From contig JAJECN010000035.1 in NCBI GenBank assembly GCA_022821965.1, forward strand, positions 76,222-140,221: a stretch of 64,000 nucleotides of DNA. The letters are read 5' to 3'. Each line of letters begins with the position of its first letter. Position 1 is the first letter of the stretch. Shown in pieces: positions 18,552 to 49,615 of the stretch. The position numbers were made by a program, and so were the translations under genes. The DNA is from Candidatus Poribacteria bacterium (GTDB taxonomy: Bacteria; Poribacteria; WGA-4E; WGA-3G). The notes below the pieces were generated by a model. The model saw only the letters and a program-made list of their open reading frames with translations, searched no databases and had not been told where the DNA came from.

Positions 18552-20267
18552 TCATTTCAGAATGTCTAAGCGCTGTAAAGTAGCGAGTGGACTTACATCA
18601 TTCACTGAAGTTCCACCGAGATTGAGACTCCTTAACCTCTCTAAACCGGCGAGTGGACTTACATCATTCACTAAAGTTCCACCGAGATTGAGACTCCATA
18701 AACTCTGTAAACCGGCGAGTGGACTTACATCATTCACTGAAGTTCCGGCAAGATTGAGACCCCATAAGTTCTGTAAACCGGCGAGCGGACCCACATCGAT
18801 CACTGAAGTTCCACGCAGATCGAGCCAATTCAGATTCTGTAAACCGGCGAGTGGACTTACATTATTCACTGAAGTATAAGTGAGATCAAGACTCCATAAC
18901 CTTTCTAAACCATCGAGCGGACCCACGTCATTCACAAAAGCACCACGGAGATTCAGCCACTCCAACTCCTCTAAATCAGCAAGCGGGCCTATATCACTCA
19001 CAAAAGTTTCACTGAGATTGAGCCTCTCCAACTCCTCTAAACCAGCAAGCGGACTTATATCATTCACTGAAGTATTACGGAGATTAAGATCCCTCAAATT
19101 CTTTAAACTGATAAGAGGACTCACGTCATTCACTAAAGTATTACGGAGATTGAGCCTCTCCAACTTCTCTAAACCAGAAAGCGGACTTATATCATTCACT
19201 GCGGTTTCGCGGAGATTGAGCCTCTCCAGCTCCTCCAAACCAGCAAGCAGACTTATATCATCCACTGCGGTTTTGCTAAGATTGAGACTTTTCAACTTCT
19301 CTAAACCAGCGAGTATACCCACATCATTCACTGAAGTTCCACAAAGATTAAAACTCTTCAACTTCTCCAAACCGGCAAGTATACCCATATCATTCACCGA
19401 AGTTTCCTGGAGATTGAGCCGTTCCAACTTCTCTAAACCGGCAAGCGGACTTATATCATTCACTGCGGTTTCGCGGAGATTAAGACTCTTCAACTTCTCT
19501 AAACCAGTGAGTATACCCACATCATTCACTGAAGTATCAGTGAGATCAAGACTCCTTAAATCCTTTAAACCAGCCAGCGGACTCACGTCATTCACTAAAG
19601 TATTAGCGAGATCGAGACTCCTTAACTTTCCTAAATTAGCCAGCGGACTCACGTCATTCACTGAAGTTTCATGGAGATCCAACTGCCTCAAGTTTTCTAA
19701 ACCAGCCAGCGGACTTACATCATTTACCGAAGTATAAGCGAGGTCCAGACTCCTCAAGTTCTCTAAACCGGCAAGTGGACTCACGTCATTCACTGAAGTT
19801 GTATTGAGATATAGACTCCTCAAGTTCTCTAAACCGGCAAGTGGACTTACGTCATTCACTAAAGTTACATAGAGATACAGCGTCCGCAAGTTTTCTAAAC
19901 CAGCGAGTGGACCCACATCATTTACTGGAGTATCAGCGAGCTGAAGCCACCTCAAGTTCTCTAAACCAGCCAGCGGACCCACATCGATCACTGAAGTACA
20001 AACAAGACTGAGCTGTTCCAACTTTTCTAAACCAGCGAGTAGACTTACATCATTCACTAAAGTATCAACGAGCGATAACGCTATCAAACCCTTCGCCTTT
20101 TCCAAACCCGTTAAGTCGCTTATATCCCGGAAGCTAGCATCCAACTGTCTTAATCCTTTAAGTGCCGACTCCGTAATAGGTTCACTCGATTCTAAATCTA
20201 AAGCTTCACGGATTGCCTTAGCTAAGTACACATCTGGTATCATCACATTCGTAGTAGGATTTGTCAT
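18552..20267 (-). CDS. Leucine-rich repeat (LRR) protein with about 24 near-identical 22-aa repeats
   Basis: Repeat unit LAGLENLRSLDLxxTSVNDVSP iterated across about 540 aa. 66-bp DNA periodicity. Antisense ORFs 18562..18879 and 18880..19737 are repeat artefacts. Confidence 0.8.
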   Translation of the reverse strand: MTNPTTNVMIPDVYLAKAIREALDLESSEPITESALKGLRQLDASFRDISDLTGLEKAKGLIALSLVDTLVNDVSLLAGLEKLEQLSLVCTSVIDVGPLAGLENLRWLQLADTPVNDVGPLAGLENLRTLYLYVTLVNDVSPLAGLENLRSLYLNTTSVNDVSPLAGLENLRSLDLAYTSVNDVSPLAGLENLRQLDLHETSVNDVSPLANLGKLRSLDLANTLVNDVSPLAGLKDLRSLDLTDTSVNDVGILTGLEKLKSLNLRETAVNDISPLAGLEKLERLNLQETSVNDMGILAGLEKLKSFNLCGTSVNDVGILAGLEKLKSLNLSKTAVDDISLLAGLEELERLNLRETAVNDISPLSGLEKLERLNLRNTLVNDVSPLISLKNLRDLNLRNTSVNDISPLAGLEELERLNLSETFVSDIGPLADLEELEWLNLRGAFVNDVGPLDGLERLWSLDLTYTSVNNVSPLAGLQNLNWLDLRGTSVIDVGPLAGLQNLWGLNLAGTSVNDVSPLAGLQSLWSLNLGGTLVNDVSPLAGLERLRSLNLGGTSVNDVSPLATLQRLDILK

Positions 20268-35611: not shown

Positions 35612-37054
35612 GTGGAGGGGAAAACCGTGGATGTATATGATTTGACGATTATTGGCGGCGGAAGTGCTGGACTCGTGCTTGCCGTGGCGGGTGCAAAGTT
35701 AGGCAAAAAGACAGCACTTGTAGAGAAACACCGCATCGGTGGAGATTGCCTCTGGACAGGATGCGTGCCTTCCAAAGCACTCCTTAAAGTGGCAAAGGTC
35801 GCGAATTACATCGGAGATGCCGAGAAATACGGGATTACATCCACCGACACAACGCTCAACTGGCAGAGCGTCATGGAGTATGTACGTAGCACCCAACATG
35901 TCATAGAAGAGGAACATGACAATCCTGAGCGATTTCGTGAGATGGGCGTTGATGTCATCTTCGGAAACGGGCATTTTGAATCAAGGGACACTTTCGTTAT
36001 AGAAGATACTGAGAACGACCAACCCCGTACGCTCAAAAGCAAAAGGTTTGTGATTAGCACCGGTTCTCGACCGCTTGCCCCACCTATACCCGGATTGGAA
36101 GCTTGTGATTATCTTGACAGTGAGAACGTCTGGGAACTTGAAGAGTTACCCAACCGACTGCTCGTCGTCGGCGCGGGTCCCATCGGCGTTGAATTGGGGC
36201 AAGCGTTTCATCGACTCGGTGCTGATGTGACGATAGCACAACGGAGCGGACGCATCTTGACGAAGGAAGACACCGATGTCTCTGAACAAATGCTGGGTTA
36301 CCTCCGCGAGGAAGGCGTTACGATCCGACTCAATACGAACATTGCACAGGTTGTGCAACGTCAAGAAGGCATAAGCGTGACCTTCAGCAACGGTGAAAGC
36401 GAAACGACGGAACAAATCTTTGATAAGATTCTAATTGCTGCAGGACGTGCGCCGAACGTTGAAGGGTTAGAACTTGACAAAATCGGGGTGCAGGTAGGCA
36501 AGCGTGGCATTGAAGTAAACAACAGACTTCAGACAAACATCAAAAACATCTATGCCGCAGGCGATGTCATCGGACACTATCTGTTCACACACGTTGCTGC
36601 TTTCCAAGCGCAACTACTCATCCGAAATATCTTCTTCCCGCTCTCCAAAACGATCAACTATGCTGTTGTCCCGTGGACAACCTTCTGCGACCCGGAGGTT
36701 GCCCGATGTGGTCTAACCGAGGCAGAGGCGCGCGAGAAATATGGGGATGTTGATGTGTTCACACTCGATCAGAACGACGTTGACAGAGCCGTCGCGGAGG
36801 GCGAGACGCGAGGTTTTAGTAAAGTTATTGCGAGTCGTTGGACAGGAAAAATATTGGGAGTGCACCTCGTCGGAGCAAATGCTGGAGAGGTTATCCATGA
36901 ATACGTTTTGGCAATGCAAGAGGGGATCCCACTGCGGAAGTTGAGCGGGATGATTCATGTATATCCAACGTTTTCGAGCAGTGTTTGGCGCGTAGCAGGC
37001 AAATGGTTCTCAGAAAGCACGCTCATTCAGACACTGAGGAAATTGATTCCATAA
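35612..37054 (+). CDS. Class I FAD-dependent pyridine nucleotide-disulfide oxidoreductase (dihydrolipoyl dehydrogenase / mercuric reductase-like)
   Basis: FAD motif LTIIGGGSAGL. Redox-active disulfide GGDCLWTGCVPSK. NAD motif VVGAGPIGVE. C-terminal dimerisation domain. Starts 2 nt after the amidohydrolase stop. Confidence 0.7.
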   Translation: MEGKTVDVYDLTIIGGGSAGLVLAVAGAKLGKKTALVEKHRIGGDCLWTGCVPSKALLKVAKVANYIGDAEKYGITSTDTTLNWQSVMEYVRSTQHVIEEEHDNPERFREMGVDVIFGNGHFESRDTFVIEDTENDQPRTLKSKRFVISTGSRPLAPPIPGLEACDYLDSENVWELEELPNRLLVVGAGPIGVELGQAFHRLGADVTIAQRSGRILTKEDTDVSEQMLGYLREEGVTIRLNTNIAQVVQRQEGISVTFSNGESETTEQIFDKILIAAGRAPNVEGLELDKIGVQVGKRGIEVNNRLQTNIKNIYAAGDVIGHYLFTHVAAFQAQLLIRNIFFPLSKTINYAVVPWTTFCDPEVARCGLTEAEAREKYGDVDVFTLDQNDVDRAVAEGETRGFSKVIASRWTGKILGVHLVGANAGEVIHEYVLAMQEGIPLRKLSGMIHVYPTFSSSVWRVAGKWFSESTLIQTLRKLIP

Positions 37055-37127
37055 CACTACAGCGCGTGTCTCTACACGGACGAAACACCGTGGCAAAGCA
37101 CACGAGAACGAAAGAGGTTTTCCTATA

Positions 37128-37166
37128 ATGCCGTATGGACAGGCACGGATACCTGTCCATACAATA
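37128..37166. terminator. Perfect 11-bp stem hairpin between convergent genes
   Basis: GTATGGACAGG-cacggata-CCTGTCCATAC, located between the stop at 37054 (+) and the stop at 37178 (-). No strong U-tract. Confidence 0.4.
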
Positions 37167-37177
37167 GTGTTCTGAGA

Positions 37178-39283
37178 TTATTGCGCGCCTTCTATTGGCA
37201 GCACACCCGCTTCCACGCCTCCTACTTTAATCCTAATCTGTACCTCTTTAGATCCTGTTACGATGAAACCTTTAATAATGAGTTCAGTTTCTATAGGTTG
37301 TTCCGCAGAACCGTCTGGGAGTGGGAAGCCTTCCGGCAATGGAAAACCTTCTGGAATTTTTCCGTTATCGCCTTCACCTTCTTCGCCATTCTCTGGGAGT
37401 GGGAAGCCCTCTGGCAGCGATAAATCTTCCGGTAATGGGAATCCACCGCCAAAAGCTGAGGGTGTAAGGGTTATTGTAATTAACCCCGCATCCATCTGCT
37501 CTTCTTCCTTCTGACGGATGAGTTCGTCGAGGTTCCTTGGCAACGGTTTTTCATCTTCCTCTTCTTCCGTATCTAAGATGTCATCGAAAATATCGCCGAA
37601 GAGTTGTGTGAATTCTGTGTCGTCAGTCGATTCATCGTCGGCGGAAACCGTAAGGGTCGCTTCACCTATCGGGAAGCCGTCAGGGATGTCAAGTATAACT
37701 TCTCTTTGAATTGTTCGTTCAGCACCGGCAGTGCTCCAATGCGGAAGTAGCACAATCGAAACCGTGAGACTTTCCCCAGGCATCACTTCAGTGGGTACAA
37801 TAATTTCGTCAATTTCGGCTTTGGCAATTTGCGGTTTGTCCGTTATAGAAATCGACACCGCTTTCAATGTTGCTTTGCCCGCGCTGTTTCTAAGTGTATC
37901 GGTGAACGAAGCAATAACTGAACCCGTTCCTATGAACACATCTAAAAACGGATTTGAAGAGGCAGTTCGGAACTTTTCTGTATACACAGTTTCGGTTTCT
38001 TGAAAGTGAAGTGTTACAGTCCCTTCAACTGTTGCGGGGTTCCTTTCCATCCGAATAGCATCCATCGTTAAGGCTGCAACAGCCGGAATCGCCCATTCTT
38101 GACCATAAGCCACAACGTGATGTTTCTCCATTGGCGTGTTATTAACAGGACGATAAGAGAATTTCACTGGAATCATTGCTGGCCCCGGACCGAGCTCTCC
38201 TACAATTCCGGGATGTAGGTCTTTGGTTATTGTTCCGATCGGATTTCCAAACTCGGAGACGGATTTAACTGATAGCACCAACCTTGGCACGATTCCATGT
38301 GTCACTGCTCTGTATACCGGTAATGCAGACTTCCCATCAGCCACGAATGGATGCCCAAAGGCTACAAATTTATTGTCATAAATCTGTGTCACTGTCCCAA
38401 AACCAATGACACTCACAACGTCTCCTGTAGCTATGGCAGCACCAATCATATCTCCCGCAGAGAGTTTTGTTTTCACACCCGCAGGCGGTGCCGCACGGAC
38501 ACCCCCGATATTACCAAGCAATTCAACAAAATTGAATCTTGAATCGGAAAAGTATGAGGAAAGTTCTTGAATTCTGTGAGGCTGAATCCCTGTAATCATC
38601 ATAGGTGTTTTAACTGGCGCGTACAAGGAATTAATCGTGAGTGCGGGTGCCGCGGGTGCCGCCTCTTCCTCCAGAAACTCACCAAACGTTGGGTGGTTTA
38701 TTGCTGCCTCCATATAATCAATAGGTGTGACCAAGAACCGATACGGCGGTTTACTATACGAATATGCAAAGGCGAGAGCCCCCATAACACGTCCCGGGGG
38801 ACCGATAGGACTGCCCGACATTCCAGCTGCGACACCACCTAAAGCCTCTGCGGATTCATCAATCAATTCGCACTCGTAGACAGGTGATCCCAAAGGACCC
38901 TCTCGAACGGATCGAAATCGTGCCTGTAGGATAACTTTGCTGGTACCCTCAAGCACGGTAATGATTTCCAAGGGTGTTTTGCTTGTCAGTTTTCCAGCTT
39001 CATCCTCATACATATTTTCCAGTACAACATCTCCGGCAAAACGTGGGGCGTTAAGAACGGATGTAGAATCGTTCGTTATCGGATTTTCAGACTGTGTTTG
39101 CTCTTCATCAAGAGAACAGCCAAGTTGGTATAGCATCGTAATAGCAATGCTGGCAAAAATGAGCAGACGTTTCACTTTGATTCCTCCAAAGACAAAGGTT
39201 TCCTTAATTGTTTTGTTATAGTACACACTAAATTGACCCCTATCGATGAAATTCGCCAGCCATCCATCTTCGGAACACTTCAA
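37178..39283 (-). CDS. Secreted protein with SpoIVB/peptidase-S55-like serine protease core and C-terminal PEGFPLP repeat tail
   Basis: Signal/TM (LLIFASIAITMLYQLGCS). Candidate catalytic Ser in GMSGSPI and His in FVAFGHPF. C-terminus has five or more copies of PEGFPLP plus an acidic low-complexity stretch. Confidence 0.45.
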   Translation of the reverse strand: MKCSEDGWLANFIDRGQFSVYYNKTIKETFVFGGIKVKRLLIFASIAITMLYQLGCSLDEEQTQSENPITNDSTSVLNAPRFAGDVVLENMYEDEAGKLTSKTPLEIITVLEGTSKVILQARFRSVREGPLGSPVYECELIDESAEALGGVAAGMSGSPIGPPGRVMGALAFAYSYSKPPYRFLVTPIDYMEAAINHPTFGEFLEEEAAPAAPALTINSLYAPVKTPMMITGIQPHRIQELSSYFSDSRFNFVELLGNIGGVRAAPPAGVKTKLSAGDMIGAAIATGDVVSVIGFGTVTQIYDNKFVAFGHPFVADGKSALPVYRAVTHGIVPRLVLSVKSVSEFGNPIGTITKDLHPGIVGELGPGPAMIPVKFSYRPVNNTPMEKHHVVAYGQEWAIPAVAALTMDAIRMERNPATVEGTVTLHFQETETVYTEKFRTASSNPFLDVFIGTGSVIASFTDTLRNSAGKATLKAVSISITDKPQIAKAEIDEIIVPTEVMPGESLTVSIVLLPHWSTAGAERTIQREVILDIPDGFPIGEATLTVSADDESTDDTEFTQLFGDIFDDILDTEEEEDEKPLPRNLDELIRQKEEEQMDAGLITITLTPSAFGGGFPLPEDLSLPEGFPLPENGEEGEGDNGKIPEGFPLPEGFPLPDGSAEQPIETELIIKGFIVTGSKEVQIRIKVGGVEAGVLPIEGAQ

Positions 39284-40037
39284 CGTCTGTAAAATCCTTG
39301 AGAATATATCCGATTAACACGGGATCCTTGAGCGCGAGCCAAATAAGTGCATCCTGCTCGTCGTATTCATCAAACAGTTCTCCAGCGAGCGCAGCATCCG
39401 CCTGCTCAGTTTTTCCAACGTAAAAGATGAGTTCCAGGAGAAAGAAAGCGAACTCCACCCCATTCACAGCATTCCGTTTGGGATGTACAAAATGCTTAAA
39501 TCCTATATTGAGTCCAGGACCGTCCATCAACTTCGCGAATTCGTCTTGAAAAGTATCAGGATCTTCGCCATGGTATCCACGGGTCAGAACATGTCTATAG
39601 TGTACTGCGAAAAGATGGGCATTCGCGGCATCTTCTTCGTCAGGTTTCTTAAGCTGCTGCTTCAAAAATGGCATGTATCGCGATGGATGAGACGATGCCA
39701 TTTCCCAGAACGCATCATAAGTTTGATAGCGGTCTTCTAACGGATGGTTACGTCTGAGGAAGTCTAAATAGGTCCTGGACGTGACGAGTCGCCGGAGCGT
39801 TCTGAAGTCGTCATCTAAAATGTTCCCCGGGTTTTCACGCTTGAGTTGTTCAAACGTTTCCTCGGGCGTTGGGGGTCGTGCGACTGGCTCAACACGGCTC
39901 TCTGTGTTGATGTCTTCTTTTTCGGGTTTTAGCGTGCTTGGATCTGGACTGGATTGGCACGCGAAAAGTAGGGAGATCCCTAAAAAGAGACAGACTCGCA
40001 GTTGGTTGAAAAAGTGTTGACATTCAAAGTATCGCAT
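39240..40037 (-). CDS. Hypothetical lipoprotein (paralog A)
   Basis: Lipobox LLFACQSS. Conserved blocks shared with the next gene (NPGNILDDDFRTL...TYLDFLRRNHP, KDFTDVEVFRRWMAGEF). Confidence 0.4.
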   Translation of the reverse strand: MRYFECQHFFNQLRVCLFLGISLLFACQSSPDPSTLKPEKEDINTESRVEPVARPPTPEETFEQLKRENPGNILDDDFRTLRRLVTSRTYLDFLRRNHPLEDRYQTYDAFWEMASSHPSRYMPFLKQQLKKPDEEDAANAHLFAVHYRHVLTRGYHGEDPDTFQDEFAKLMDGPGLNIGFKHFVHPKRNAVNGVEFAFFLLELIFYVGKTEQADAALAGELFDEYDEQDALIWLALKDPVLIGYILKDFTDVEVFRRWMAGEFHR

Positions 40038-40140
40038 GTTCGTTATATCCTCCGAAGGTTAGGATGTACCAGCGGGCACTCACCGGAACACGCTGCCCAC
40101 AATATCATAGGACTGCAGGCGGACGTGTCACTTTTTTACA

Positions 40141-41061
40141 TTAGTCCTGGGGTAGCATCCACCAGGAGGCGATTTCACTAAATTCTCCATTAACCCATTT
40201 CCGGAACACCTGAACGTCTGTAAAATCTTTGAGGACATATCCGAGACTCACCGGTTCTTGGAGTGCGACCCGTAAAATCCCTTTTTGAACGCCATGTTCA
40301 ACAAAAAGTGCCTGTATTTTTGCCCGATCTTCCTCTTGCAGGTCCTCGACCAGAATCAGATGATAGGCCAAAATTTTTATCCAAAGAAGAAAGTTTACGC
40401 CTTCGGCATCAAAAAGGCGTTGCTCCAGCCAACTGTTCACAGGCTCATTCATCATCATATCCACAGTACTTTCACGTCCTTGGTTCTCACCATGATACGT
40501 GCGGACATTCAAGGTGCGATGATGCAAAGTCATATAACGAAGGATATCAACATCCTCTGCAGTCGGAGCAGGGCGAGGCGGCTTAAGATGGGTGTTCAAA
40601 AGTTCCACGTACGGCTCTTCATCTACAGATACCAACGCCCAAAACTCATCGAAATTCTGAAACTGATTTTCCTGTGGATAGGTACGTTTCAAGAAGTCTA
40701 TATAAGTTTCTGAGTTGATGATGTCTTGAATCCTTGTGAAGTCGTCGTCTAAAACGTTGCCAGGAAATTCCAGACGCAACTGCGCCGTCATCTCCGCCAT
40801 TGTAGGGAGCCTTTGCATCGGTGCCATTGGTGCTGCGTCAACAAATTGCGGTGCGGATTCCATCGCCAAGACATTTTTCTGTACATTCGCCAGCACCTCT
40901 GCCACCATTTCTCTCGTGATGGATTGCGTCGTTGTTTCTGCTGGGGCTAACGCGTTGCGGTCTTGGGGTTCCGAACAGCCGCAAACCGCTGCACCTCCGA
41001 GAAGGACACAAAAGGTCAATAGATTGAACAGACACTGATATTGAGATCGAAAATATACCAT
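40141..41061 (-). CDS. Hypothetical lipoprotein (paralog B)
   Basis: Lipobox-like signal (LLGGAAVCGCSEP). Same conserved blocks (EFPGNVLDDDFTRIQ...TYIDFLKRTYP, KDFTDVQVFRKWVNGEF). Confidence 0.4.
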   Translation of the reverse strand: MVYFRSQYQCLFNLLTFCVLLGGAAVCGCSEPQDRNALAPAETTTQSITREMVAEVLANVQKNVLAMESAPQFVDAAPMAPMQRLPTMAEMTAQLRLEFPGNVLDDDFTRIQDIINSETYIDFLKRTYPQENQFQNFDEFWALVSVDEEPYVELLNTHLKPPRPAPTAEDVDILRYMTLHHRTLNVRTYHGENQGRESTVDMMMNEPVNSWLEQRLFDAEGVNFLLWIKILAYHLILVEDLQEEDRAKIQALFVEHGVQKGILRVALQEPVSLGYVLKDFTDVQVFRKWVNGEFSEIASWWMLPQD

Positions 41062-41232
41062 GCTTTTTCTCCTTAAGTTGTGTGGACGTTTCTATAAACA
41101 TTCCGCCCCGCTGGGGCTACTGTATCCGCCTTTTCAACGATTTACAATGAGGATCAAACACATTGAAAAATCGACAAATACTTGAAAACTCAATATGAAA
41201 TGGACAGAAATTGATCAACCTTTAGTCACTTT

Positions 41233-41283
41233 TTAATGATACAATTTAAGGGGCAAAAGGGTGCATAATTTGAAAAAAAAATT
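41233..41283. repeat. About 50-bp direct repeat, copy 1 (ttaatgatacaatttaaggggcaaaagggtgcataatttgaaaaaaaa)
   Basis: About 47/50 identical to copy 2 at 44531..44580. Lies between the stop of the sigma-fusion gene and the start of lipoprotein paralog B. Confidence 0.7.
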
Positions 41284-41349
41284 GGAAAAACTGAATCAGA
41301 ACGGCGATAAAATGAAAATGAAAGGTTTTTCAGGAGCCTTCTGTCAATA

Positions 41350-44322
41350 TCAATCGTTTTCTTTTTTAAGCGAGGCATGAAATATCCCGCTCCGCTTGGT
41401 AGCGATATAAAGTCTATCACCATCAATGGCAACGGAGATGACCCTGTTCGGCACCTCTGGCAAGATTTGTTCCCATTTTCCCCGGTTATCCAATTGATAG
41501 ACCCCCGCATTACCAGCCCCATAAATCGTCGTGCCAACCACAGCAATTCTATCTATAATAGTGCGGGTCCCTGCCTTATCAGTTAGCGTGCGCCAGTTTT
41601 CACCCTCATCTGATGTTAAGACACCTGCGTCTGTAGCGACGTGAACCGCTGAACCGGCAAAAACTATCTCGTTGAAATGCTCAAATTGGAACGGCAGCGT
41701 TGCAGTGAGGTCTTTCCATGTGTTACCACCATCAAGCGATCGAAAGAGATGCCCATTGCGTTTGCCAACATAGACAGTTTCGCCTGAAACAGCGAGAATG
41801 AAACGATTGGGATCATCGTTAGCAGGTTCATAGATGTCTACCAGTCCAGTGTCGAACCATTCAGGTTCGCCGCGTCTCCACCGCAGAAGTCGCCCCTGAT
41901 ACGTCACATAGAATGCATCGCCGCTAACCGCAAATTCGCGAGGAATACTCCGTGGCTTTGTATTTGTCGAACTACTAACTTTTTCAGGATCGTTAGCGGA
42001 ATCGTCTGCTATATTTTCTTTGGGGACTTTCTCTGATACCTCTATAGGGAGACTCCCGCCAAAAACAGGGATATCTTGAATAAGAACCAAGGTCCTGCCA
42101 CTGAAAGAAAGACGGAAAATGCGCAGTGCATCTTCCATGCCTAAGATGGGTGTGATGCCGTAAAGCACACCGTCAGAAACCGCCATTTTTGGAAAACCCA
42201 ACAGCCCCCCAGCGTCCAATCCATCTACTTTTGGTAACGCATTAGGACCGAAGCCCAAGGTTTTCCACGACCTCCCACCATCAATGGATTTAGCGATATT
42301 CATACCGGTATTTATATAGAGCGCGTTTTTGAATGCCAGTAACTTAAAAATTCCGGTCCCTACCATCCCTGCTATAAATGGATGCCACGATTCACCGCTA
42401 TCGGTTGAACGGGTAAGCCCAAAAAGCCCGGCTTTGAACAGTGTATTTTCGTCCACTCCGACAACCGGTAATACGCTCAGCATCATTGAATTCACCATCG
42501 AATTTAAGTCTAATTTGTTAGCTTCGGGGTGCGTCCATGTTTCCCCGCGATCAGTTGATCGGAATTGGAACCCGATATATCCGAGTGCCCAGAGCGTTTC
42601 TCCAGCAGTCAGGACTTTAATCCCCGGTGATATCCTTAACAAGATCGATTCATTTACGGGGGTTATTTCAGTCCACGAATCGCCCAAATCGGTTGAACGA
42701 AAAATTTCCCACATATTTTGCTTCTTCTCCATTGCTTCTTGTACAGATGCCTTCACTCGAGAAGAATTGAAAAGATCGGGTCCTGTCCCGACATAAAGGT
42801 TATTTTCGGAAACTGCCAAGGAATGGATAGCCAGAGTAGTATTCAATGGCAATTTTTCTAAACCGTGTCTTGACTTGATACGGTAGAGTCCTTGATTTGT
42901 CCCGACAAATACTGTGTTTTCAAACATAGCCAAGGCAAAGACTGTTACCTCTGTACCTTCATCATTCAATAGCGTCCACTGCTTACCCATATCTTCAGAT
43001 CGAAAAACACCTTTGTCTTGAAGCGCGAGGTACAACGCTTCATCCGTTATCGCTAATCCGATAGCAACTCCTTCTGGACGTGTCCCAAGCGATGTCCATA
43101 TCTCTCCACTATTGCTCGAACTGAACACTTCATTAACAGAGACAAGATAGAGCGTGTCATCTTTCTCTGCCATCGGTATCAGGTCGGCACCGGTGGAAGC
43201 GGTTGGAAAGTTAACAGCGGATGCAGGACTAACGAACGTCCATGCAGGAGCATCGGGTGTCAATCTATAGATACCGAGGTGCGAAGCGGCGTAGGTAGTG
43301 CCTTCTGAACTGACGAATAAGCCCGATATCAGACCCCCTCCCGGACCGCTTGCTTGTACCCACTGCTGCTTCATTGTCTCGGGTACTTCCTTCTCTATCT
43401 GCGCGGCAGCAGGCACAACAGGTTCCGAAACTTGTGGACCAGCACCTCTGCTCCTACCGGTAGTATCAAAACGTCCGGCTTGGTTCCGTAAATCCGGCTC
43501 CGCTTGTGTATCAAGGACGATAGGCGCGTCAATGATTTCAACAGTGGTTTCCGATTGGGCGTTTAAGTTGTAAGGCTTTTGAAAGCGGGCAAGGTACTGA
43601 GACCCGATACCGATCATTAGAATAAAAAAAATAGCAGCAGTACCAAAAGCTACCCACGGTAGCAGTGGTTTCCCAGACTGAGGCGCAATCGGCTTCATGT
43701 CGGCAACTTGCCGCATAATACTCTCCATGAAATCGGTAGACAATTGGACGCTGCCGAGCGTTTCACGAACTAAGAGTTCTTCTTCTTGTAAACGCTCTCG
43801 TGCCCGGCGAAGGCGACTCTTAATCGTGTTCACTGACACACCTAAGAACTTGCCAATCTCTTTCGTTGTCATTTCACCGAGATAATGGAGTGTCACCACT
43901 GTGCGTTCACTCTCCGGCAGCTTTTCCAGCAGTTCTTTGACGATTTCGTGGCGATGTTCCATAACTTCCATCTCCCGTTGATCCGATACATAATGTTTAT
44001 AAGAAGATTCCTCTATCTCCGTTACAGGTGTGTCCCCCAGGGATTGCATCGTAGGTTTTCTCTTTTGATGCCATCTCTTGCAAAGATTACTCGCAATAAC
44101 ATAAAGCCATCCAGCAAACTGGTTGGGATTCCTTAGTGTAGCGAGGTTTTTGTATACTTGGAGGAAGGCATCTTGGGCAATCTCTTCAGCGATATGAAAA
44201 TCTCCAATTTTCCGCCACGCAAGTGCGTGAACACTCTTTTGGTATTTTCGGACCAAGGCACTGAATGCCTCCTCATCACCTGCTAACACTCTGTAAATCA
44301 GTTGAACATCGTCTTCCACCAT
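41350..44322 (-). CDS. Single-polypeptide ECF sigma factor - transmembrane helix - BNR/Asp-box beta-propeller fusion protein
   Basis: Residues 1-190 carry sigma-70 regions 2 and 4 (ERTVVTLHYLGEMTTKEIGKFLGVSVNTIKSRLRRARERL). One TM helix (LLPWVAFGTAAIFFILMIGIG). About 700-aa extracytoplasmic region with eight or more SxDxGxxW Asp-box motifs. Confidence 0.7.
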   Translation of the reverse strand: MVEDDVQLIYRVLAGDEEAFSALVRKYQKSVHALAWRKIGDFHIAEEIAQDAFLQVYKNLATLRNPNQFAGWLYVIASNLCKRWHQKRKPTMQSLGDTPVTEIEESSYKHYVSDQREMEVMEHRHEIVKELLEKLPESERTVVTLHYLGEMTTKEIGKFLGVSVNTIKSRLRRARERLQEEELLVRETLGSVQLSTDFMESIMRQVADMKPIAPQSGKPLLPWVAFGTAAIFFILMIGIGSQYLARFQKPYNLNAQSETTVEIIDAPIVLDTQAEPDLRNQAGRFDTTGRSRGAGPQVSEPVVPAAAQIEKEVPETMKQQWVQASGPGGGLISGLFVSSEGTTYAASHLGIYRLTPDAPAWTFVSPASAVNFPTASTGADLIPMAEKDDTLYLVSVNEVFSSSNSGEIWTSLGTRPEGVAIGLAITDEALYLALQDKGVFRSEDMGKQWTLLNDEGTEVTVFALAMFENTVFVGTNQGLYRIKSRHGLEKLPLNTTLAIHSLAVSENNLYVGTGPDLFNSSRVKASVQEAMEKKQNMWEIFRSTDLGDSWTEITPVNESILLRISPGIKVLTAGETLWALGYIGFQFRSTDRGETWTHPEANKLDLNSMVNSMMLSVLPVVGVDENTLFKAGLFGLTRSTDSGESWHPFIAGMVGTGIFKLLAFKNALYINTGMNIAKSIDGGRSWKTLGFGPNALPKVDGLDAGGLLGFPKMAVSDGVLYGITPILGMEDALRIFRLSFSGRTLVLIQDIPVFGGSLPIEVSEKVPKENIADDSANDPEKVSSSTNTKPRSIPREFAVSGDAFYVTYQGRLLRWRRGEPEWFDTGLVDIYEPANDDPNRFILAVSGETVYVGKRNGHLFRSLDGGNTWKDLTATLPFQFEHFNEIVFAGSAVHVATDAGVLTSDEGENWRTLTDKAGTRTIIDRIAVVGTTIYGAGNAGVYQLDNRGKWEQILPEVPNRVISVAIDGDRLYIATKRSGIFHASLKKEND

Positions 44323-44443
44323 CGGAATTCTCCATGATTATAGTAAAATCTAAATTATCCATACATCAACAAAATGGCGACGTTACAAATCTCCACAGCG
44401 AAGAAACACGGCTGCAGAACTGTTCAGGACTTACGCAGCCTCT

Positions 44444-44472
44444 CGCTGGCGAGGTTTAAAACCTCGCCAGCG
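44444..44472. repeat. GGCGAGGTTT...AAACCTCGCC palindromic hairpin element (family copy)
   Basis: cgctggcgaggtttaaaacctcgccagcg with a 13-bp stem. Related copies at 18439..18459, 45926..45946 and 62972..62992. Confidence 0.55.
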
Positions 44473-44530
44473 GCGTGTAGGAGGCAAGTACTTATCAGAA
44501 AAGTGCGCAAATCTCCCTGTTATTCAATTA

Positions 44531-44580
44531 TTAATGATACAATTTTAAGGGGAAAAGGGTGCATAATTTGAAAAAAATTA
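44531..44580. repeat. About 50-bp direct repeat, copy 2
   Basis: ttaatgatacaattttaaggggaaaagggtgcataatttgaaaaaaatta, about 210 bp upstream of the sigma-fusion start codon. Confidence 0.7.
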
Positions 44581-44807
44581 GATAGAACTTACGCAAATTG
44601 ACCAGAAAAAAGGTATATTTTGCTGAAAAGTTGTTATTTGATTGTATTTAACCCCCTAAATCCCCCTTATCAGGGGGACTTTAAGAGAAAATGCGTAAGT
44701 CCTATTAGAAAAAGAATCTGATACTCATCGGATTTGGGCAAATTCCACTAAGATAAATTGGGCAGGAGTAGTCCTTGGAAGTATGTATTAAATTTAGGAA
44801 CAAAAAA

Positions 44808-46010
44808 TTACTGCTTTTTCACCTCTCCCCACGTTGTTGTCAACAATTTCGGCTGCGGTGAAACAGGCAACGCGACGACTGGATCAAACCAATCCGCCAA
44901 GGAATTTGCTTGAAACCGAGCTAATCCAACGACATGGGTGAGTTGTATTGGCGTGCGGCTGCCTAAGTCAATTTTGAAAAGTTGGAGGTAATCATCAATT
45001 TCCTGCGTATAAATAAGTGCATCACCCCGCGGCGACCAAACCGGATCCCTGGCTTGTGCTCCCGCTTCATCAACAATCTGTTGAAGTCCGGTGCCATCTC
45101 TATTCGCAATGTAGATTGTCCCTTTGTCCCGTACATCTTGGATATCTACTTCAGCGAAATCAACACCTCGATTCTGAGCCCGTTTCAATTTTTCTTTCCA
45201 GAAATCATGCCTGAGCCAGAAAAAAGCGAGTTTGTCGCCGGACGGGGACCAAGCAGCCCTATACATATACGGATGATGATTTGGAAGGAACGTCTCTTCT
45301 ACACGTGTTCGGAGGTCGAAAAAATGAAGTTGAGAGAGACGACGAATAATCCATAGGTTGGGTGCCAGCATTTCGTGTTTTTTACCCGTTGAGACAAAGA
45401 CTATCTCCGTCCCGTCAGGTGACCAACTGGGTGAAAGTCCGATCGCTATTCGTTGCTCCTGTTTGCCAGTTACTTCCGCTGTATAGATGAACCACGCAGC
45501 ACCATCAAGTCGCTCATAAGCAATTCTTTTTCCATCCGGAGACCACGTTGGGTGTGCCCTATGTGCAGACTTCCCGAAAATTTTCCGTACATTGCCACCG
45601 TCGGCATCCATTAGATATAGGTCCCGCACACCATCACGGTCTGAGACAAAAAGAATTTGCTCTCCTGTGGGCGACCAGACCGGATAAACATCCTCTGCTG
45701 GATGGTTGGTAATATTGACCTGTTGACTTCCATCGGGATTCATTAAGTATATCTCGCGATTTCCATCACGGAATGACGCGAATACAATCTTTGCTGTGTC
45801 TGGTGCCTTGCCAAAAGCTGGACGAATGCTCACGCATAACAATACTATACTGAATAGAAAAAAAATATGGTAAAATCGAAAAATATGTGAACAGTTCGGC
45901 ACGGAACAAACACCCCACCGCCCCTGGCGAGGTTTGGAATCTCGCCTTTGTGTGGGTGTATAGGTAATTGCGGATTTTACTATAATCGAAAGACTTTGTG
46001 TGGGTTTCAT
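44808..46010 (-). CDS. TolB-like periplasmic WD40-like (PD40) beta-propeller protein
   Basis: Repeated PD40 units (DGNREIYLMNPDGS, SPDGKRIAYE, SPDGTEIVF). Start uncertain: the upstream part of the ORF-track call overlaps a hairpin repeat and the neighbouring gene. Confidence 0.6.
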   Translation of the reverse strand: MKPTQSLSIIVKSAITYTPTQRRDSKPRQGRWGVCSVPNCSHIFRFYHIFFLFSIVLLCVSIRPAFGKAPDTAKIVFASFRDGNREIYLMNPDGSQQVNITNHPAEDVYPVWSPTGEQILFVSDRDGVRDLYLMDADGGNVRKIFGKSAHRAHPTWSPDGKRIAYERLDGAAWFIYTAEVTGKQEQRIAIGLSPSWSPDGTEIVFVSTGKKHEMLAPNLWIIRRLSQLHFFDLRTRVEETFLPNHHPYMYRAAWSPSGDKLAFFWLRHDFWKEKLKRAQNRGVDFAEVDIQDVRDKGTIYIANRDGTGLQQIVDEAGAQARDPVWSPRGDALIYTQEIDDYLQLFKIDLGSRTPIQLTHVVGLARFQANSLADWFDPVVALPVSPQPKLLTTTWGEVKKQ

Positions 46011-46036
46011 CACAAATTTCGCCTGCAATGGGTCAA

Positions 46037-47032
46037 CTATTTGGAGGCATCTTCTGATTGCTTGAGTGCCCCCCAGAGCGTTATCTGTTTCTCCGCACTC
46101 GGAGAAACGGAAAGAAAACCCTCCGGCACCCACTCAGGACCATCAGCTACCAGTCTTCTTGTTGCCTCAATCGGATCCCCGCCCGCAACGTCTGCCATAT
46201 TTGCAACACAGATGACCGAGTTCGCAAAAAACTCTTCCGCCAGACCCCACACCTCTGGACGAATTTCTGGTAGTTGAATCAAAAGATAGGCGATCCATTT
46301 CCCATTCGGTGACCACGTAGGTTCAAAGATTGCTACAGGTTTTCTATACAACCGAGTGAGTTGGCGCATATTTTTTCCATCTATGTCAATACTGAAAAGA
46401 GCAGCACCCCCGACAGCCCCCCATCGTGGGACAAAAGCAATCTCTTTACCACTCGGTGACCATGTGCAGTCAGTAGAAGACGTGTCTGCGAGGGGTTGCT
46501 CCTTTTTCCCTTCAGTAGTCATCAGAAAAAGAGAGGATTTTGAGATAAAGGCGATCCATTGGCTATCTGGAGACCACGCGGGTCTTTTGCAGCCTCCTCG
46601 ATTCGTCAGTCGCATCACATTTTCTCCATTGGCATCCATTCTGTAGAGGTCTATATTCCCCGCGCGATTTGAGGCGAAGGCGATCCATTTTCCATTCGGA
46701 GACCACGCGGGCCACCAATCCCTACCATCATCGAAGGTCAACCGACGATGTGTGTCCGTTCTCACATCCATTACGTAAATATCAGGGTCCCCATTTCGAT
46801 TGGACATATAGGCAATCAAGCGTCCATCAGGGGACCAGGTGAGGTGGCCTATGGATTCTTTTACCATCAGTGTTTGAAGGAATTCGCCTCGGGTATTTAT
46901 GAGTTGGATAGAACGCCTATCCTTTCCCGTGACAAAAGAGAGGACATCACGCTCATCCGCCCAGCCACGGCTAACAAACGTGAAAGACCCTATCAATAAC
47001 ACCATCCCTAATATCACACAAATGAATAAGCG
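46037..47032 (-). CDS. TolB-like periplasmic PD40 beta-propeller protein
   Basis: Signal peptide MKRLFICVILGMVLLIGSFT. PD40 repeats (SPDGRLIAYMSNRNGDPDIYVMD, SPNGKWIAFASNRAGNIDLYRMD). Start re-assigned to ATG 47032. Confidence 0.65.
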   Translation of the reverse strand, partial: RLFICVILGMVLLIGSFTFVSRGWADERDVLSFVTGKDRRSIQLINTRGEFLQTLMVKESIGHLTWSPDGRLIAYMSNRNGDPDIYVMDVRTDTHRRLTFDDGRDWWPAWSPNGKWIAFASNRAGNIDLYRMDANGENVMRLTNRGGCKRPAWSPDSQWIAFISKSSLFLMTTEGKKEQPLADTSSTDCTWSPSGKEIAFVPRWGAVGGAALFSIDIDGKNMRQLTRLYRKPVAIFEPTWSPNGKWIAYLLIQLPEIRPEVWGLAEEFFANSVICVANMADVAGGDPIEATRRLVADGPEWVPEGFLSVSPSAEKQITLWGALKQSEDASK

Positions 47033-47530
47033 TTTCATATCTATATTTCCTTTTTGATGTTGCATTATATAGGGGGTAATGGATAGACGCAACGGAAATT
47101 TCGATGGAAAACTGACAGGGCTGTTTGAAAGAGAAAGAAAAGGAGCCGGAAACCATGTCCTAATCGGTTCCAAGAGGTTCAGGGACTCTAACCTAACTCT
47201 CGTGTGCAACAGAGGCTTGCAAACTATACCTTTTAGGAATTATGGCTCCGGCTTACCCAAGGAGGCTTATATAAGACATTTGCAATTTCCGTGCCAATAG
47301 AAAAGTGCCTGTTTTAGGCAATTTGCGGAGGGTATTGCCCACTTTTTCAACATTTTATGATAAAAAAATAAACACGACTCTAATAGCAACAGGAAACCGA
47401 GCAAGTTACAGAATATCGGCAACGCGGAAGAGCGTCGCGACTGGAGTCTGTATAATTAACCGACAACCTCCATTGCCATCCAAAGTCGCCCACAGATTGA
47501 TACCCCCGCTCAGACCATGATACATCAACG

Positions 47531-48043
47531 CTACTTCAGGGGTTGAACAGTATACTGTTCAGCCAACATATTTTCTAACAAAGTAGAGTATACTTGGTTT
47601 AAATCCCTGAATTTAAGTCGCACATTTGTAAAGCAAGACGTGTTGACCAATTCCTCTATCTGTGCCTCGGTAAGATTCCCTGATACCAGAATCGGAATTT
47701 CCGCTAAGCATCCGTTGATAAGCTCATCAAGCAACGCTGAGGAGGCACCATCCCGAACCTCATCCTCTAATAATTTGCCTGTATCAAAAGCGATTTCATC
47801 GGGTAGACTATTTAAAGCATCGACCCCAATTAACGCCCGAATCTCAGGATCTACCCGTGATACCGCAGCCTTAACATCCGAAAGCGGCATTCCCTCAAGG
47901 ATAGCCGATAGGTCGTCCACAGTGACAACCGAGGGATTTAAGACATCTTGTGCTTCAATTGCGGTATCGCAGGAGGTCAACATAAAAGGCAGGGTTAAGA
48001 CTACACTTGCAACCACGAACATAACTGGCATTAAATTTCTCAT
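47531..48043 (-). CDS. Hypothetical lipoprotein
   Basis: Lipobox FMLTSC. Acidic. No recognised domain. Confidence 0.35.
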   Translation of the reverse strand: MRNLMPVMFVVASVVLTLPFMLTSCDTAIEAQDVLNPSVVTVDDLSAILEGMPLSDVKAAVSRVDPEIRALIGVDALNSLPDEIAFDTGKLLEDEVRDGASSALLDELINGCLAEIPILVSGNLTEAQIEELVNTSCFTNVRLKFRDLNQVYSTLLENMLAEQYTVQPLK

Positions 48044-48067
48044 GTCATTCTCCTTCTTTAAGTGAAT

Positions 48068-48126
48068 CCTACAGCAGAACAGCGGTCAGCAAAATAGCTA
48101 TCAGCCATCGGCTGTCAGTCATTAGT
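48068..48126. repeat. Degenerate heptamer-repeat palindromic element (CAGCGGT/CAGCCAT ... CTGTCAG)
   Basis: agcagaacagcggtcagcaaaatagctatcagccatcggctgtcagtcatt, between a lipoprotein gene start and the rtcB stop. Confidence 0.45.
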
Positions 48127-48160
48127 AGTGGCATTTGAGGATAGAAGATAGGTTCTAAGA

Positions 48161-49615
48161 TTAACCCTTTACGACACCAATGGGACGGAGGCGTGCGACA
48201 CGGCGAGAGAGACCCGCTTTGTCAACAACGCGGACGACTTCGTCAACATCTTTGTAAGCTTCGGAGACCTCTTCTTGGAGGGTTCGTCTACCTTCTGCTC
48301 GGACGTAGATACCCCGTGCCTCCAAATCTTTCTGGATAGAACGTCCCTTCGTCAAGGCGATCGCCTTCCGCCGGGAGAGCACTCTGCCAGCACCGTGACA
48401 GGTTGTACCCCACGTCTCTGCCATCGCCCCCAGATTGCCGACAAGTACGTAAGAGGCAGTCCCCATATCGCCGGGGATCAACACGGGTTGACCGACTTTC
48501 TGGTATTTATCGGGGATCTCAGGATGCCCGGCTGGAAACGCACGCGTCGCGCCCTTACGATGGATAAACAACTCGCGTTCCTCGCCATCAACGGTGTGCT
48601 TCTCGAACTTCCCGATGTTGTGTGCCACATCGTAGACAAGTTCTAAGCCGAGTTCATCTTCAGTCGTCTCAAAAAATTGCATGAAGGTCTGCCGGACGAG
48701 GTGCATGATACACTGCCGATTGTTCCACGCATAGTTGGCACTACACGCCATCGCGGTGATGTAATCTTGCCCTTCTGGCGAGTTAATCGGTGCGGAGGCG
48801 AGTTGCCGGTCGGGGAGATTTATGCCGTATCTCTCGGCGACTTTGACCCAACTCTTGACATGCTCATCACAGATTTGATAACCGAAGCCGCGTGAACCGG
48901 TATGAATCATGACACAGATGTTGCCTTCACTTAATCCCATCGCATTAGCGGCTTCTCGGTAAAAAATGCGGTCAACGGCTTGAACTTCAAGGAAATGATT
49001 ACCGGAGCCGAGCGTGCCGAGTTGGTTCTTGCCGCGCTCTAAGGCGCGTTGACTTGCCGCGTCAGCACTCGCGCGTTCAAGGAAACCCGTCGCCTCTGTA
49101 AAATTCAGGTCGTTCGGATGCCCGTATTCCCGCTCAATCGCCCACAGCGCGCCCTTTTCCAACATCCGCCGCTCCTCTTGGACGGTGAGCCGAATCTTGC
49201 CACTGGAGCCGACACCACACGGGACATTCTCAAACAACTTGGCAACGAGTGCTTTCCGTTTGCCTTCCAGCTGCGAAACATCAAGGTTTGTACGGATGAG
49301 GCGGACTCCGCAGTTGATGTCGTATCCGATACCACCCGGAGAGACCACACCATCCGCTTTTGGATCTGTGGCAGCGACCCCACCAATGACGAAGCCGTAT
49401 CCCCAATGCAAATCCGGCATCGCAAGCGAATGTTTAACAATACCGGGGAGGTGTGCAACGTTTGCGACTTGTTGCAATGCCTCGTCGCTTTTCGCGTGTT
49501 CAAGAAGCTTCTCATTGGCATAAACAATGCCATCAACACGCATCCCCTTCATATAACTTTTCGGGATACGCCAGCGGTATTCATCTATTTTCTGGAGTGT
49601 TATGTTTTGTGCCAT
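48161..49615 (-). CDS. rtcB: RNA-splicing ligase RtcB (3'-phosphate/5'-hydroxyl RNA ligase)
   Basis: Full-length RtcB similarity including the metal-binding His/Cys regions (HTGSRGFG, HNIGKF, CHGAGR). Confidence 0.9.
   Translation of the reverse strand: MAQNITLQKIDEYRWRIPKSYMKGMRVDGIVYANEKLLEHAKSDEALQQVANVAHLPGIVKHSLAMPDLHWGYGFVIGGVAATDPKADGVVSPGGIGYDINCGVRLIRTNLDVSQLEGKRKALVAKLFENVPCGVGSSGKIRLTVQEERRMLEKGALWAIEREYGHPNDLNFTEATGFLERASADAASQRALERGKNQLGTLGSGNHFLEVQAVDRIFYREAANAMGLSEGNICVMIHTGSRGFGYQICDEHVKSWVKVAERYGINLPDRQLASAPINSPEGQDYITAMACSANYAWNNRQCIMHLVRQTFMQFFETTEDELGLELVYDVAHNIGKFEKHTVDGEERELFIHRKGATRAFPAGHPEIPDKYQKVGQPVLIPGDMGTASYVLVGNLGAMAETWGTTCHGAGRVLSRRKAIALTKGRSIQKDLEARGIYVRAEGRRTLQEEVSEAYKDVDEVVRVVDKAGLSRRVARLRPIGVVKG

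Follow-up and report, generated by a model that had tools for sequence, protein, structure and literature searches.

A 64,000-nt stretch of DNA from a Candidatus Poribacteria bacterium (assembly GCA_022821965.1, contig JAJECN010000035.1, positions 76,222 to 140,221; hereafter the window) carries a gene whose product joins in one polypeptide a complete extracytoplasmic function (ECF) sigma factor, one transmembrane helix and a large Asp-box beta-propeller ectodomain. Residues 1-190 are a genuine ECF sigma, which is covalently tethered to the cytoplasmic membrane, and the propeller is periplasmic. By analogy to RsiV or IutY (see below), we read the protein with moderate confidence as an autoregulated one-polypeptide transmembrane sigma that would be released by proteolysis. 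A preliminary description of the gene, made from its letters, took the fusion in isolation; the family to which it belongs is modular and expanded in Poribacteria, and has a recognisable candidate promoter. The gene runs on the minus strand, which corrects the preliminary description (coordinates in Table 1).

Domain architecture of the sigma-propeller fusion

The 990-codon open reading frame (ORF) at 41350-44322 begins with an ATG, contains zero internal stops and is preceded by the Shine-Dalgarno sequence GGAG 7-10 nt 5' of the start codon. More than 120 homologues of 976-1020 aa are alignable over the full length of the protein with 57-100% identity. The single uninterrupted sigma-sensor polypeptide that had been proposed is borne out by this frame and these homologues, and a search for a missed frameshift or stop found none, the frame being continuous and the homologues full-length. 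The alternative that a sigma gene and an independent gene for an anti-sigma or sensor were fused by an assembly or frameshift error would find some footing in a few database relatives which start exactly at the linker behind the sigma domain (P0250 and P0211 begin with MIREAL...) and are possibly genuinely split genes. The start of these short relatives is, however, an internal Met also found in the fused proteins, for which reason they are probably truncated gene calls, and P0250 and P0211 were rejected as separate anti-sigma genes. Furthermore, the full-length homologues are independent and come from many assemblies, complete chromosomes included. Since the fusion is conserved across homologues, an artefact is effectively refuted and we consider its probability negligible.

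The preliminary description had placed a complete ECF sigma with regions 2 and 4.2 in the N-terminal 190 aa, and both regions were matched above cutoff: Sigma70_r2 (PF04542) at residues 23-89 with 47.4 bits (cutoff 24) and Sigma70_r4_2 (PF08281) at residues 126-178 with 63.2 bits (cutoff 25.7). The Pfam model Sigma70_ECF covers residues 7-181 above its curated cutoff, and TIGR02937 (sigma70-ECF) of NCBIfam scores 101.2 bits (cutoff 42.9). The nearest named NCBIfam models for the sigma core are SigW/RpoE-like, all of them under their equivalog cutoffs. No Sigma70_r3 or r1 match was found by Pfam in the 990-aa protein. An AlphaFold model of the full-length fusion (88 homologues as input; mean predicted local distance difference test score, pLDDT, 74.6) places the sigma-2 helices at residues 5-87 and the sigma-4 helices at 118-190, with a pLDDT of about 81-89 over most of both and lower values at the domain ends; the connector between them (residues 89-119, about 30 aa) is predicted to be disordered. 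With sigma-2 and sigma-4 present, neither sigma-1.1 nor sigma-3, and a short linker, the protein is an ECF (group 4) sigma-70 factor. No part of the protein is better conserved in the family alignment than the sigma domain. Residue C81 in sigma-2 is conserved in 97% of the family; query position 153 in sigma-4 (window approximately 43864-43866) is Thr here and Cys in 44% of the representatives that share the sigma-to-juxtamembrane part, with the consensus EMTCxEIS.

Conservation of the parts that follow was assessed over 111 aligned family representatives. The cytoplasmic linker comprises 37 residues between sigma-4 and the transmembrane helix and holds one short conserved helix (198-208; family consensus LTENIM), modelled by AlphaFold with moderate confidence, and a K218-P219-x-x-P222 motif. 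Its length is insufficient for a class I anti-sigma domain. Within residues 182-330, no anti-sigma family was found in Pfam (E up to 10) or NCBIfam (E up to 1), the one match at E 0.13 being irrelevant; at these permissive thresholds, nothing pointed to a hidden anti-sigma domain in this region. The transmembrane segment had been termed "anti-sigma-like", a label that is unsupported due to the linker of only 37 aa and the lack of any anti-sigma family match in this region; beyond the transmembrane helix itself, nothing anti-sigma-like was detected. Judged from sequence, the sigma factor thus appears to be followed by a bare tether with no detectable anti-sigma domain.

The single transmembrane helix claimed behind the sigma domain was recovered both by hydropathy and by AlphaFold. 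Only one strong hydrophobic segment occurs, with its peak at residues 219-241 (Kyte-Doolittle 2.18; next best 1.29), and the modelled helix spans residues 225-240 with the low confidence usual for transmembrane helices. The hydrophobic core is short (approximately 223-237, about 15-17 residues) and starts just after K218-P219. At the end of the helix a near-invariant small-x-small motif, G-x-G/S, is found: position 238 is G in 106 and S in 5 of the 111 representatives, and position 240 is G in 75, S in 29 and A in 2, i.e., a small residue in 106 of 111. By its sequence, this motif fits the -3/-1 rule of signal peptidase I and is a candidate cleavage site. P0261, a relative without sigma domain, possesses a signal-peptide-like N-terminus ending with CAYG-QY at the place equivalent to the end of the transmembrane helix.

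The juxtamembrane segment behind the helix contains a conserved core (242-283, about 45 aa) with the consensus QYLxRFQxPYSLDAxSExTVEIxDAPIV...KPxxRNQxG. Its consensus fraction of 0.61-0.66 is like that of sigma-4 and far above that of the connector between sigma-2 and sigma-4. AlphaFold gives residues 241-319 block-mean pLDDT values of 23-40 and zero predicted secondary structure. A SEAL/SEA-like autoproteolytic domain was considered for this region and rejected, the segment being short, predicted to be disordered and without an Asn-Pro hairpin.

The preliminary description had announced one BNR/Asp-box propeller of about 700 aa with eight or more SxDxGxxW repeats. Eight Asp-boxes were indeed identified, seven of them strict S-x-[DN]-x-G-x-x-[WFY] motifs (residues 402, 442, 543, 589, 639, 679, and 862) and one relaxed (residue 903), and the Asp-box propeller stands; the single propeller does not, as this part divides into about 80 aa of disordered juxtamembrane segment and about 670 aa that form two propellers. 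In Pfam, Sortilin-Vps10 (40.7, cutoff 33) and DUF6242 (33.9, cutoff 29) score above cutoff, BNR_6 lies barely at its cutoff (27.2 vs 27) and BNR barely below (26.2 vs 27). The pLDDT of the propeller region is mostly 80-94, with a disordered insert at 759-790. In a Foldseek search of the PDB the top matches were GH74 xyloglucanases (2cn3_A with E 4.7e-21 and a TM-score of 0.59 on the target; about 20 further GH74 chains, with TM-scores on the target of 0.43-0.60 for GH74 overall), and the Bacteroides hybrid two-component sensors BT4673 and BT4663 (TM-scores 0.2-0.3) as well as PorZ were also among the top matches. GH74 propellers are seven-bladed. Since the double propellers of GH74 and of the hybrid sensors are the best solved folds, the ectodomain is taken as a tandem double propeller and not as a single one.

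The same matches raise the question of whether the ectodomain is primarily an enzyme, i.e., a membrane-anchored GH74-like glycoside hydrolase with a secondary or vestigial sigma. Besides the GH74 structures as best structural matches, a sub-threshold NCBIfam match to the F510_1955 glycosylhydrolase family (106.6 bits vs cutoff 175) and a GHL15 hydrolase-like tail on another paralog point in this direction. The tandem beta-propeller fold is shared with the GH74 xyloglucanases, but no GH74 chain matched the ectodomain in the sequence search, so that the likeness is one at fold level and the catalytic Asp pair is not mappable. It also speaks against an enzyme that the sigma domain is the best-conserved part and above all curated thresholds, that the same N-terminal part also carries non-enzymatic WD40 and leucine-rich-repeat (LRR) domains, and that double propellers are pure sensors in the Bacteroides hybrid two-component systems. 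We therefore regard a primarily enzymatic ectodomain as very improbable.

A cassette shared by many Poribacteria proteins

An exhaustive HMMER search of 1.84 billion representatives at 50% identity yielded 478 clusters at E ≤1e-30. Among the best 150 of these 478 clusters, about 35 are full-length sigma-BNR proteins, and about 80 match query residues 1 to approximately 300-350 only (45-65% identity; 400-1377 aa), with no match to the BNR tail. For ten such cassette-only proteins the tails were assigned with Pfam: five are WD40 (double or triple propellers), two LRR (long arrays), one is GHL15, and two gave nothing recognisable. In cassette proteins that start at the sigma N-terminus, the transmembrane helix at about residue 220 is followed directly by a segment homologous to query residues 242-300, and this juxtamembrane module at about 242-300 occurs in nearly all cassette-bearing representatives, whatever their C-terminal domain. 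Because the same module is fused to many different ectodomains, residues 1-300 (sigma, linker, transmembrane helix, and juxtamembrane segment) are regarded as a portable cassette.

A scan of one genome per GTDB species resulted in at least 598 matching stretches, of which 584 were confirmed. Within the best 80 of the at least 584 confirmed loci, 79 are titled Poribacteria metagenome-assembled genomes and the remaining one is an unlabelled uncultured bacterium. Five of these best 80 loci are located on chromosome OY761015.1 and five on OZ220722.1; locus L001 contains three fusions within 19 kb, and locus L087 three within 10 kb. Public databases annotate these proteins as "hypothetical protein" or, in general terms, as "sigma-70 family RNA polymerase sigma factor". 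The family is thus large and modular, with one cassette joined to differing outside domains, and was encountered in this analysis almost only in Poribacteria. Nothing relevant on ECF or BNR fusions of Poribacteria was found in the literature searched, which is not proof that none exists.

Several relatives and neighbours of the cassette genes deserve mention. P0261, P0182, P0211, and P0241 (about 720-790 aa) consist of an N-terminal signal or anchor and the same BNR double propeller, without the sigma domain. A juxtamembrane-like stretch is kept in P0261 directly after the signal-peptide-like N-terminus; the linker forms the very start of P0211 and P0241, whose gene calls may be truncated. In case of locus L002, an IS605 OrfB / Cas12f-like TnpB gene (11495-12544) is situated between two tandem sigma-BNR paralogs, as a possible vehicle or by-product of local duplication. 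A 591-aa protein without Pfam family is encoded in divergent orientation just upstream of an LRR-tailed and a GHL15-tailed cassette gene (L086, 632-2407, and L088, 479-2254); due to this common neighbour, it is suggested that LRR- and GHL15-tailed fusions occupy the same genomic slot in different genomes. The window itself also contains, on the minus strand, a free-standing 571-aa leucine-rich-repeat protein (18552-20267; LRR_4, E 2e-62) with the kind of repeat that is fused in P0179, and a stand-alone 240-aa ECF sigma (10792-11514), in which Sigma70_r2 and r4_2 are above their cutoffs. The latter shares 24% identity with the sigma region of the fusion; as listed, its ORF is extended at the N-terminus by about 45 aa, and neither a transmembrane helix nor a sensor is fused to it.

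Promoter-like module and adjacent genes

A promoter matching this sigma factor was sought, and a promoter-like module was indeed found both upstream of the sigma gene and upstream of the next gene; its status as the cognate promoter is that of a candidate. The module, derived from aligned upstream regions of orthologues and paralogs, consists of a T-tract, ATGCACC, a T-rich and then A-rich spacer, and (T/C)G(T/C)(A/G)TCATTAA. The copy in front of the next gene is nearly identical to the one in front of the sigma gene, upstream T-tract included, and the spacer is conserved between both copies. Two exact copies of TGCAMC-N20-TCATTAAW are present in the window, compared to 0.00 expected from 100 shuffles. 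With a position weight matrix built from 64 motif instances, module 1 scores 63.2 bits and module 2 60.4 bits, the rest of the 64 kb reaches at most 12 bits, and the shuffle maximum is about 0. A spacer of 21 nt was rejected, as searches with it missed sites; 20 nt is correct.

With up to two mismatches, the motif is located 54-211 nt upstream of the start in 42 out of 76 Poribacteria paralogs with enough upstream sequence; a coding-sequence control gave 11 matches in 436 kb. The module precedes the sigma fusion also in L001-L006, and paired copies, one before the sigma gene and one before the next gene, were also observed in L001, L003, L004, L005, L006, L008, L022, and L024. The -35-like TGCACC is constant, and the -10-like block is clade-dependent (GTATC, GCGTC, GCATC, GTGTC, and ACGTC). 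The motif is present in an LRR paralog; WD40 paralogs show a diverged -35-like block with CGCGTCACTA. Generic sigma-70-like promoters and terminators occur in the region at background level only, the module is no sigma-70 match, and an Rfam scan of 36000-48500 gave zero matches.

As the two-block layout is ECF-like and module copies precede both the sigma gene and the adjacent cluster, positive autoregulation and control of this cluster are presumed. Alternatively, the element might not be the protein's own promoter but a site for another regulator, or might be read by another family member; autoregulation and regulon would then be wrong, and the architecture would stand. This would agree with a -35-like TGCACC that is identical in many paralogs within one genome, which leaves paralog specificity unexplained, and with a spacer conserved between the window copies to a degree beyond what a bare -35/-10 promoter needs. 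It agrees less well with the T-tract and the two blocks at ECF-like spacing, located 54-211 nt upstream of the start in 42 of the 76 paralogs, with the lack of a sigma-70 match against sigma-70-like sites at background, and with a -10-like block that co-varies with the clade, the WD40 paralogs having a diverged -35 block. ECF sigmas are, moreover, typically autoregulated, and their target promoters are conserved within groups (PMC7826278). On balance, a foreign regulator or reader appears improbable to us.

The leader between module 1 and the sigma start is long and contains a perfect 14-nt inverted repeat at 44444-44472, CGCTGGCGAGGTTT / AAACCTCGCCAGCG, with 1 nt between the arms, which could represent an inserted repeat element or form a hairpin in the leader. 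L003 has a similar GC-rich repeat at the corresponding place; the leaders of L004 and L005 are short and repeat-free. In case of L006, three tandem units of about 32 nt (CTTTTGTAGCACAAACATCCCTGTTTGTGG...) are located at 5340-5440, between the motif and the start codon of the fusion at 6001, and extend the leader to about 400 nt.

Downstream of module 2 lie two paralogous genes with lipoprotein-like N-termini, belonging to no known family, and a third, larger gene (Table 1). The product of the 306-aa gene has no Pfam, NCBIfam or PDB match. The gene order sigma fusion, 306-aa, 265-aa, and approximately 665-aa gene recurs in L003, L004, and L006, and in part in L001. The last gene is listed as a 701-aa ORF (37178-39283, minus strand) that overlaps the end of the 265-aa gene. 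It has 429 homologues covering about 95% of the ORF; since these are mostly about 636-726 aa long, the true start is probably a GTG at 39175 in front of a lipoprotein-type signal (...LYQLGC). The resulting protein of about 665 aa contains an invariant GMSGSP motif, and its C-terminal region is repetitive and rich in proline and glutamate (PEGFPLPE repeats). Its match to SpoIVB/S55 is local to GMSGSP (Pfam E 9e-4, below cutoff; TIGR02860 E 0.006), and the family alignment contains no invariant His upstream of the GMSGSP serine. For the product of the 701-aa ORF no PDB sequence match was obtained, and its AlphaFold model (mean pLDDT 45) is too poor for a structure search. As the gene is specific to this orthologue group, the protein is more probably one of the targets than a component of signalling in general.

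The sigma fusion is directly preceded by two genes for PD40 (TolB-like) beta-propellers, on the minus strand as well (44808-46133 and 46037-47209). Their ORF starts look over-extended, as the homologues are about 330-350 aa long. No promoter motif was found in front of the PD40 genes in the window. The pairing of PD40 gene and sigma fusion is kept in L001, L003, L005, and L006, with two fusions in L006 that each have a PD40 gene in front.

Table 1. Features of the sigma-propeller fusion gene and its surroundings (window coordinates).
Feature	Position	Strand	Basis
Sigma-transmembrane-propeller coding sequence, 990 aa, stop codon included	41350..44322	minus	ORF list and end-to-end homologue alignment
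ECF sigma domain, residues 1-190	43753..44322	minus	Pfam, NCBIfam, AlphaFold
Cytoplasmic linker, residues 182-218	43669..43779	minus	AlphaFold, conservation over 111 representatives
Single transmembrane/signal-anchor segment, residues 219-241; G238-x-G240 at bases 43603-43611	43600..43668	minus	Hydropathy, AlphaFold, conservation
Juxtamembrane segment, residues 242-319	43366..43599	minus	AlphaFold, family conservation
Extracytoplasmic tandem double beta-propeller with eight Asp-boxes, residues 320-990	41353..43365	minus	AlphaFold, Foldseek, motif scan
Promoter-like module 1 (T-tract, TGCACC, 20 nt, TCATTAAT; core 44530-44563)	44528..44571	minus	About 207 nt upstream of sigma ATG
Promoter-like module 2 (core 41232-41265)	41230..41273	minus	In the 288-nt gap between sigma stop codon and 306-aa gene
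Putative target gene 1, 306 aa, lipoprotein-like N-terminus	40141..41061	minus	Directly downstream of orthologues in L001, L003, L004, L006
Putative target gene 2, 265 aa, paralog of the 306-aa gene	39240..40037	minus	31% identity, E 2e-47 (BLASTP); position conserved
Putative last cluster gene, about 665 aa, likely GTG start at 39175	37178..39175	minus	Conserved synteny, homologue lengths

Proposed activation and relation to known systems

The near-invariant small-x-small motif with which the transmembrane helix ends on its outer side, after a short hydrophobic core, suggests proteolytic release. In the resting state, confinement to the membrane would keep the sigma factor inactive, without any block by a fused anti-sigma domain. 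The double propeller would bind a ligand, a glycan or glycoconjugate being the likeliest, and binding would alter the juxtamembrane segment such that G238-x-G240 at the outer helix end becomes exposed to a site-1 cut, made by signal peptidase as for RsiV or by another periplasmic protease. A site-2 protease would then cleave the remaining signal-peptide-like stub within the membrane, and the sigma set free in this way would, with core RNA polymerase, transcribe from TGCACC-N20-TCATTAA promoters, starting a few nt downstream of the GTATCATTAA block. The genes driven by it would be its own (positive autoregulation), the two paralogous lipoprotein-like genes, and the gene of the approximately 665-aa protein.

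A number of observations weigh against this course of events. G-x-G is a weaker signal-peptidase motif than A-x-A, and in 5 of the 111 representatives position +1 is Pro, a residue that would prevent cleavage by signal peptidase I. The disorder of the juxtamembrane segment, itself a prediction, makes any role assigned to this segment a guess. Sequence similarity of the ectodomain extends only to Ycf48-like propellers (E about 1e-3). In 34 of the 76 paralogs no motif occurs within two mismatches, and where it does, another family member or a different factor could read it, a -35 block shared by many paralogs posing a crosstalk problem. Finally, no site-1 or site-2 protease gene was identified within the 64-kb window.

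The main rival is a sigma factor that stays permanently membrane-bound in a ToxR/CadC-like manner, the ligand changing conformation or oligomeric state across the helix and RNA polymerase being recruited near the membrane, with no proteolysis. Such a protein would need no anti-sigma domain, and indeed there is nothing obvious to destroy; the conserved disordered juxtamembrane segment and the conserved linker helix could form a conformational or dimerisation relay, and the 37-aa linker together with the disordered 30-aa connector between sigma-2 and sigma-4 gives some reach. The small-x-small motif with the short hydrophobic core is, however, better explained as a cleavage site, and we know of no precedent for a sigma factor that works in the holoenzyme while anchored. 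Moreover, the characterised or predicted ECF sigmas with transmembrane fusions (IutY, ECF48/52/53) are assigned to proteolytic release (PMC8999054). The permanently tethered sigma is thus considered rather unlikely.

Among known systems, the sigma/anti-sigma hybrid IutY of Pseudomonas putida (ECF243), whose sigma is freed by Prc and then RseP (PMC8999054), shares with the Poribacteria fusion the N-terminal ECF sigma, the single transmembrane helix and the periplasmic sensing part in one polypeptide. It differs in that IutY contains a FecR-type anti-sigma domain between sigma and transmembrane helix and signals via a TonB-dependent receptor, whereas the fusion possesses a 37-aa linker, a double propeller and a sigma core that is SigW/RpoE-like and not FecI-like. 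ECF52, ECF48, and ECF53 of Actinobacteria (e.g., SCO4117) carry a C-terminal extension with transmembrane helices and an extracytoplasmic carbohydrate-binding part, and proteolytic activation is predicted for them (PMC8999054, PMC5826349). The membrane-spanning C-terminal extension of an ECF sigma is common to these groups and the fusion; their zinc-finger (ZAS-like) anti-sigma domain and proline-rich region were not found here, and phylum and ectodomain fold differ. Sigma and transmembrane helix in one polypeptide are thus present as in a sigma/anti-sigma hybrid, but the FecR or ZAS anti-sigma domain between them is absent.

The preliminary description had pointed to comparable fusions with propellers from Planctomycetes, and this precedent for propeller-repeat extensions on ECF sigmas is real. 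ECF57 possesses WD40-like repeat extensions and conserved cysteines in sigma-2 and sigma-4, and protein interaction or conformational change was proposed for this group in a review (PMC8999054); ECF01-Gob is listed among the groups with C-terminal extensions (PMC5766207). Both resemble the fusion in their long propeller-repeat extension, and WD40-tailed paralogs of the Poribacteria cassette exist; in contrast, the ectodomain here is BNR/Asp-box and not WD40, the second Cys position is occupied by Thr, the organism belongs to the Poribacteria, and the review's proposal for ECF57 is not one of membrane release. Compared by description only, the cassette family may be related to ECF57, as C81 (97%) and the sigma-4 Cys (44%) recall the two-cysteine feature.

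RsiV of the SigV-RsiV system of Firmicutes contains a conserved AXA just after its transmembrane helix and becomes a signal-peptidase substrate upon ligand binding; its release is completed by the site-2 protease RasP, which also clears signal peptides (PMC4183432). The small-x-small motif immediately after a single transmembrane helix is shared, a likeness of mechanism only. Unlike the fusion, in which the sigma itself is tethered, RsiV is an anti-sigma protein in its own right that combines a cytoplasmic anti-sigma domain with a lysozyme-binding ectodomain, and no Pfam match indicating RsiV homology (DUF4179 or the lysozyme-binding domain) was found in the sigma fusion. In SigI-RsgI systems a constant cytoplasmic, transmembrane and juxtamembrane part and a disordered region are combined with interchangeable ligand-binding ectodomains, with many paralogs per genome; their juxtamembrane SEAL domain has an alpha/beta fold with five strands plus helices and undergoes self-cleavage at a conserved Asn-Pro (PMC10556640). 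Modular ectodomain swapping on a constant juxtamembrane unit is common to both, but RsgI is a separate anti-sigma with SEAL, whereas here a conserved segment of about 45 aa, predicted to be disordered, occurs without a conserved Asn-Pro. Similar to the fusion, the Bacteroides hybrid two-component systems (BT4663, BT4673) unite a periplasmic tandem beta-propeller sensor with transcriptional output in one membrane protein; their output is a kinase, a receiver and AraC, not a sigma.

Where a regulatory extension is fused to an ECF sigma, the protein is seen as the sigma-factor counterpart of a one-component system. To our knowledge, very few membrane-spanning ECF fusions have been studied, and each of them retains an anti-sigma domain. 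The principle is not new, given the ECF sigmas with membrane-spanning regulatory extension (IutY, ECF48/52/53) and the WD40-bearing ECF57/ECF01-Gob. What appears new is the lack of an anti-sigma domain, the conserved disordered juxtamembrane segment of non-SEAL type, the small-x-small site, the BNR/GH74-like ectodomain, the scale of the expansion in Poribacteria, and the family-wide promoter-like module.

It is tempting to speculate, though we hold this only tentatively and below the release reading itself, that these proteins represent a distinct Poribacteria class of one-polypeptide transmembrane sigmas, in which a cassette of about 300 residues without anti-sigma was shuffled onto many eukaryote-like repeat ectodomains (BNR, WD40, LRR, and others), giving parallel receptor-to-promoter lines per genome. 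The sigma would be fed into signal-peptide processing, by signal peptidase and then a site-2 protease, and many "eukaryote-like proteins" of sponge symbionts would be sensors wired to transcription instead of secreted host-manipulation factors. If this were true, tethering alone could be the off-state of a sigma factor. The compact modular receptor design, with one cassette, many ectodomains and a recognisable promoter, would be attractive for synthetic biology, and the promoter motif would let regulons be predicted from genomes alone. It would also change the reading of the abundant WD40, LRR, and BNR repeat proteins of Poribacteria, uncultivated symbionts of sponges, and may explain their role.

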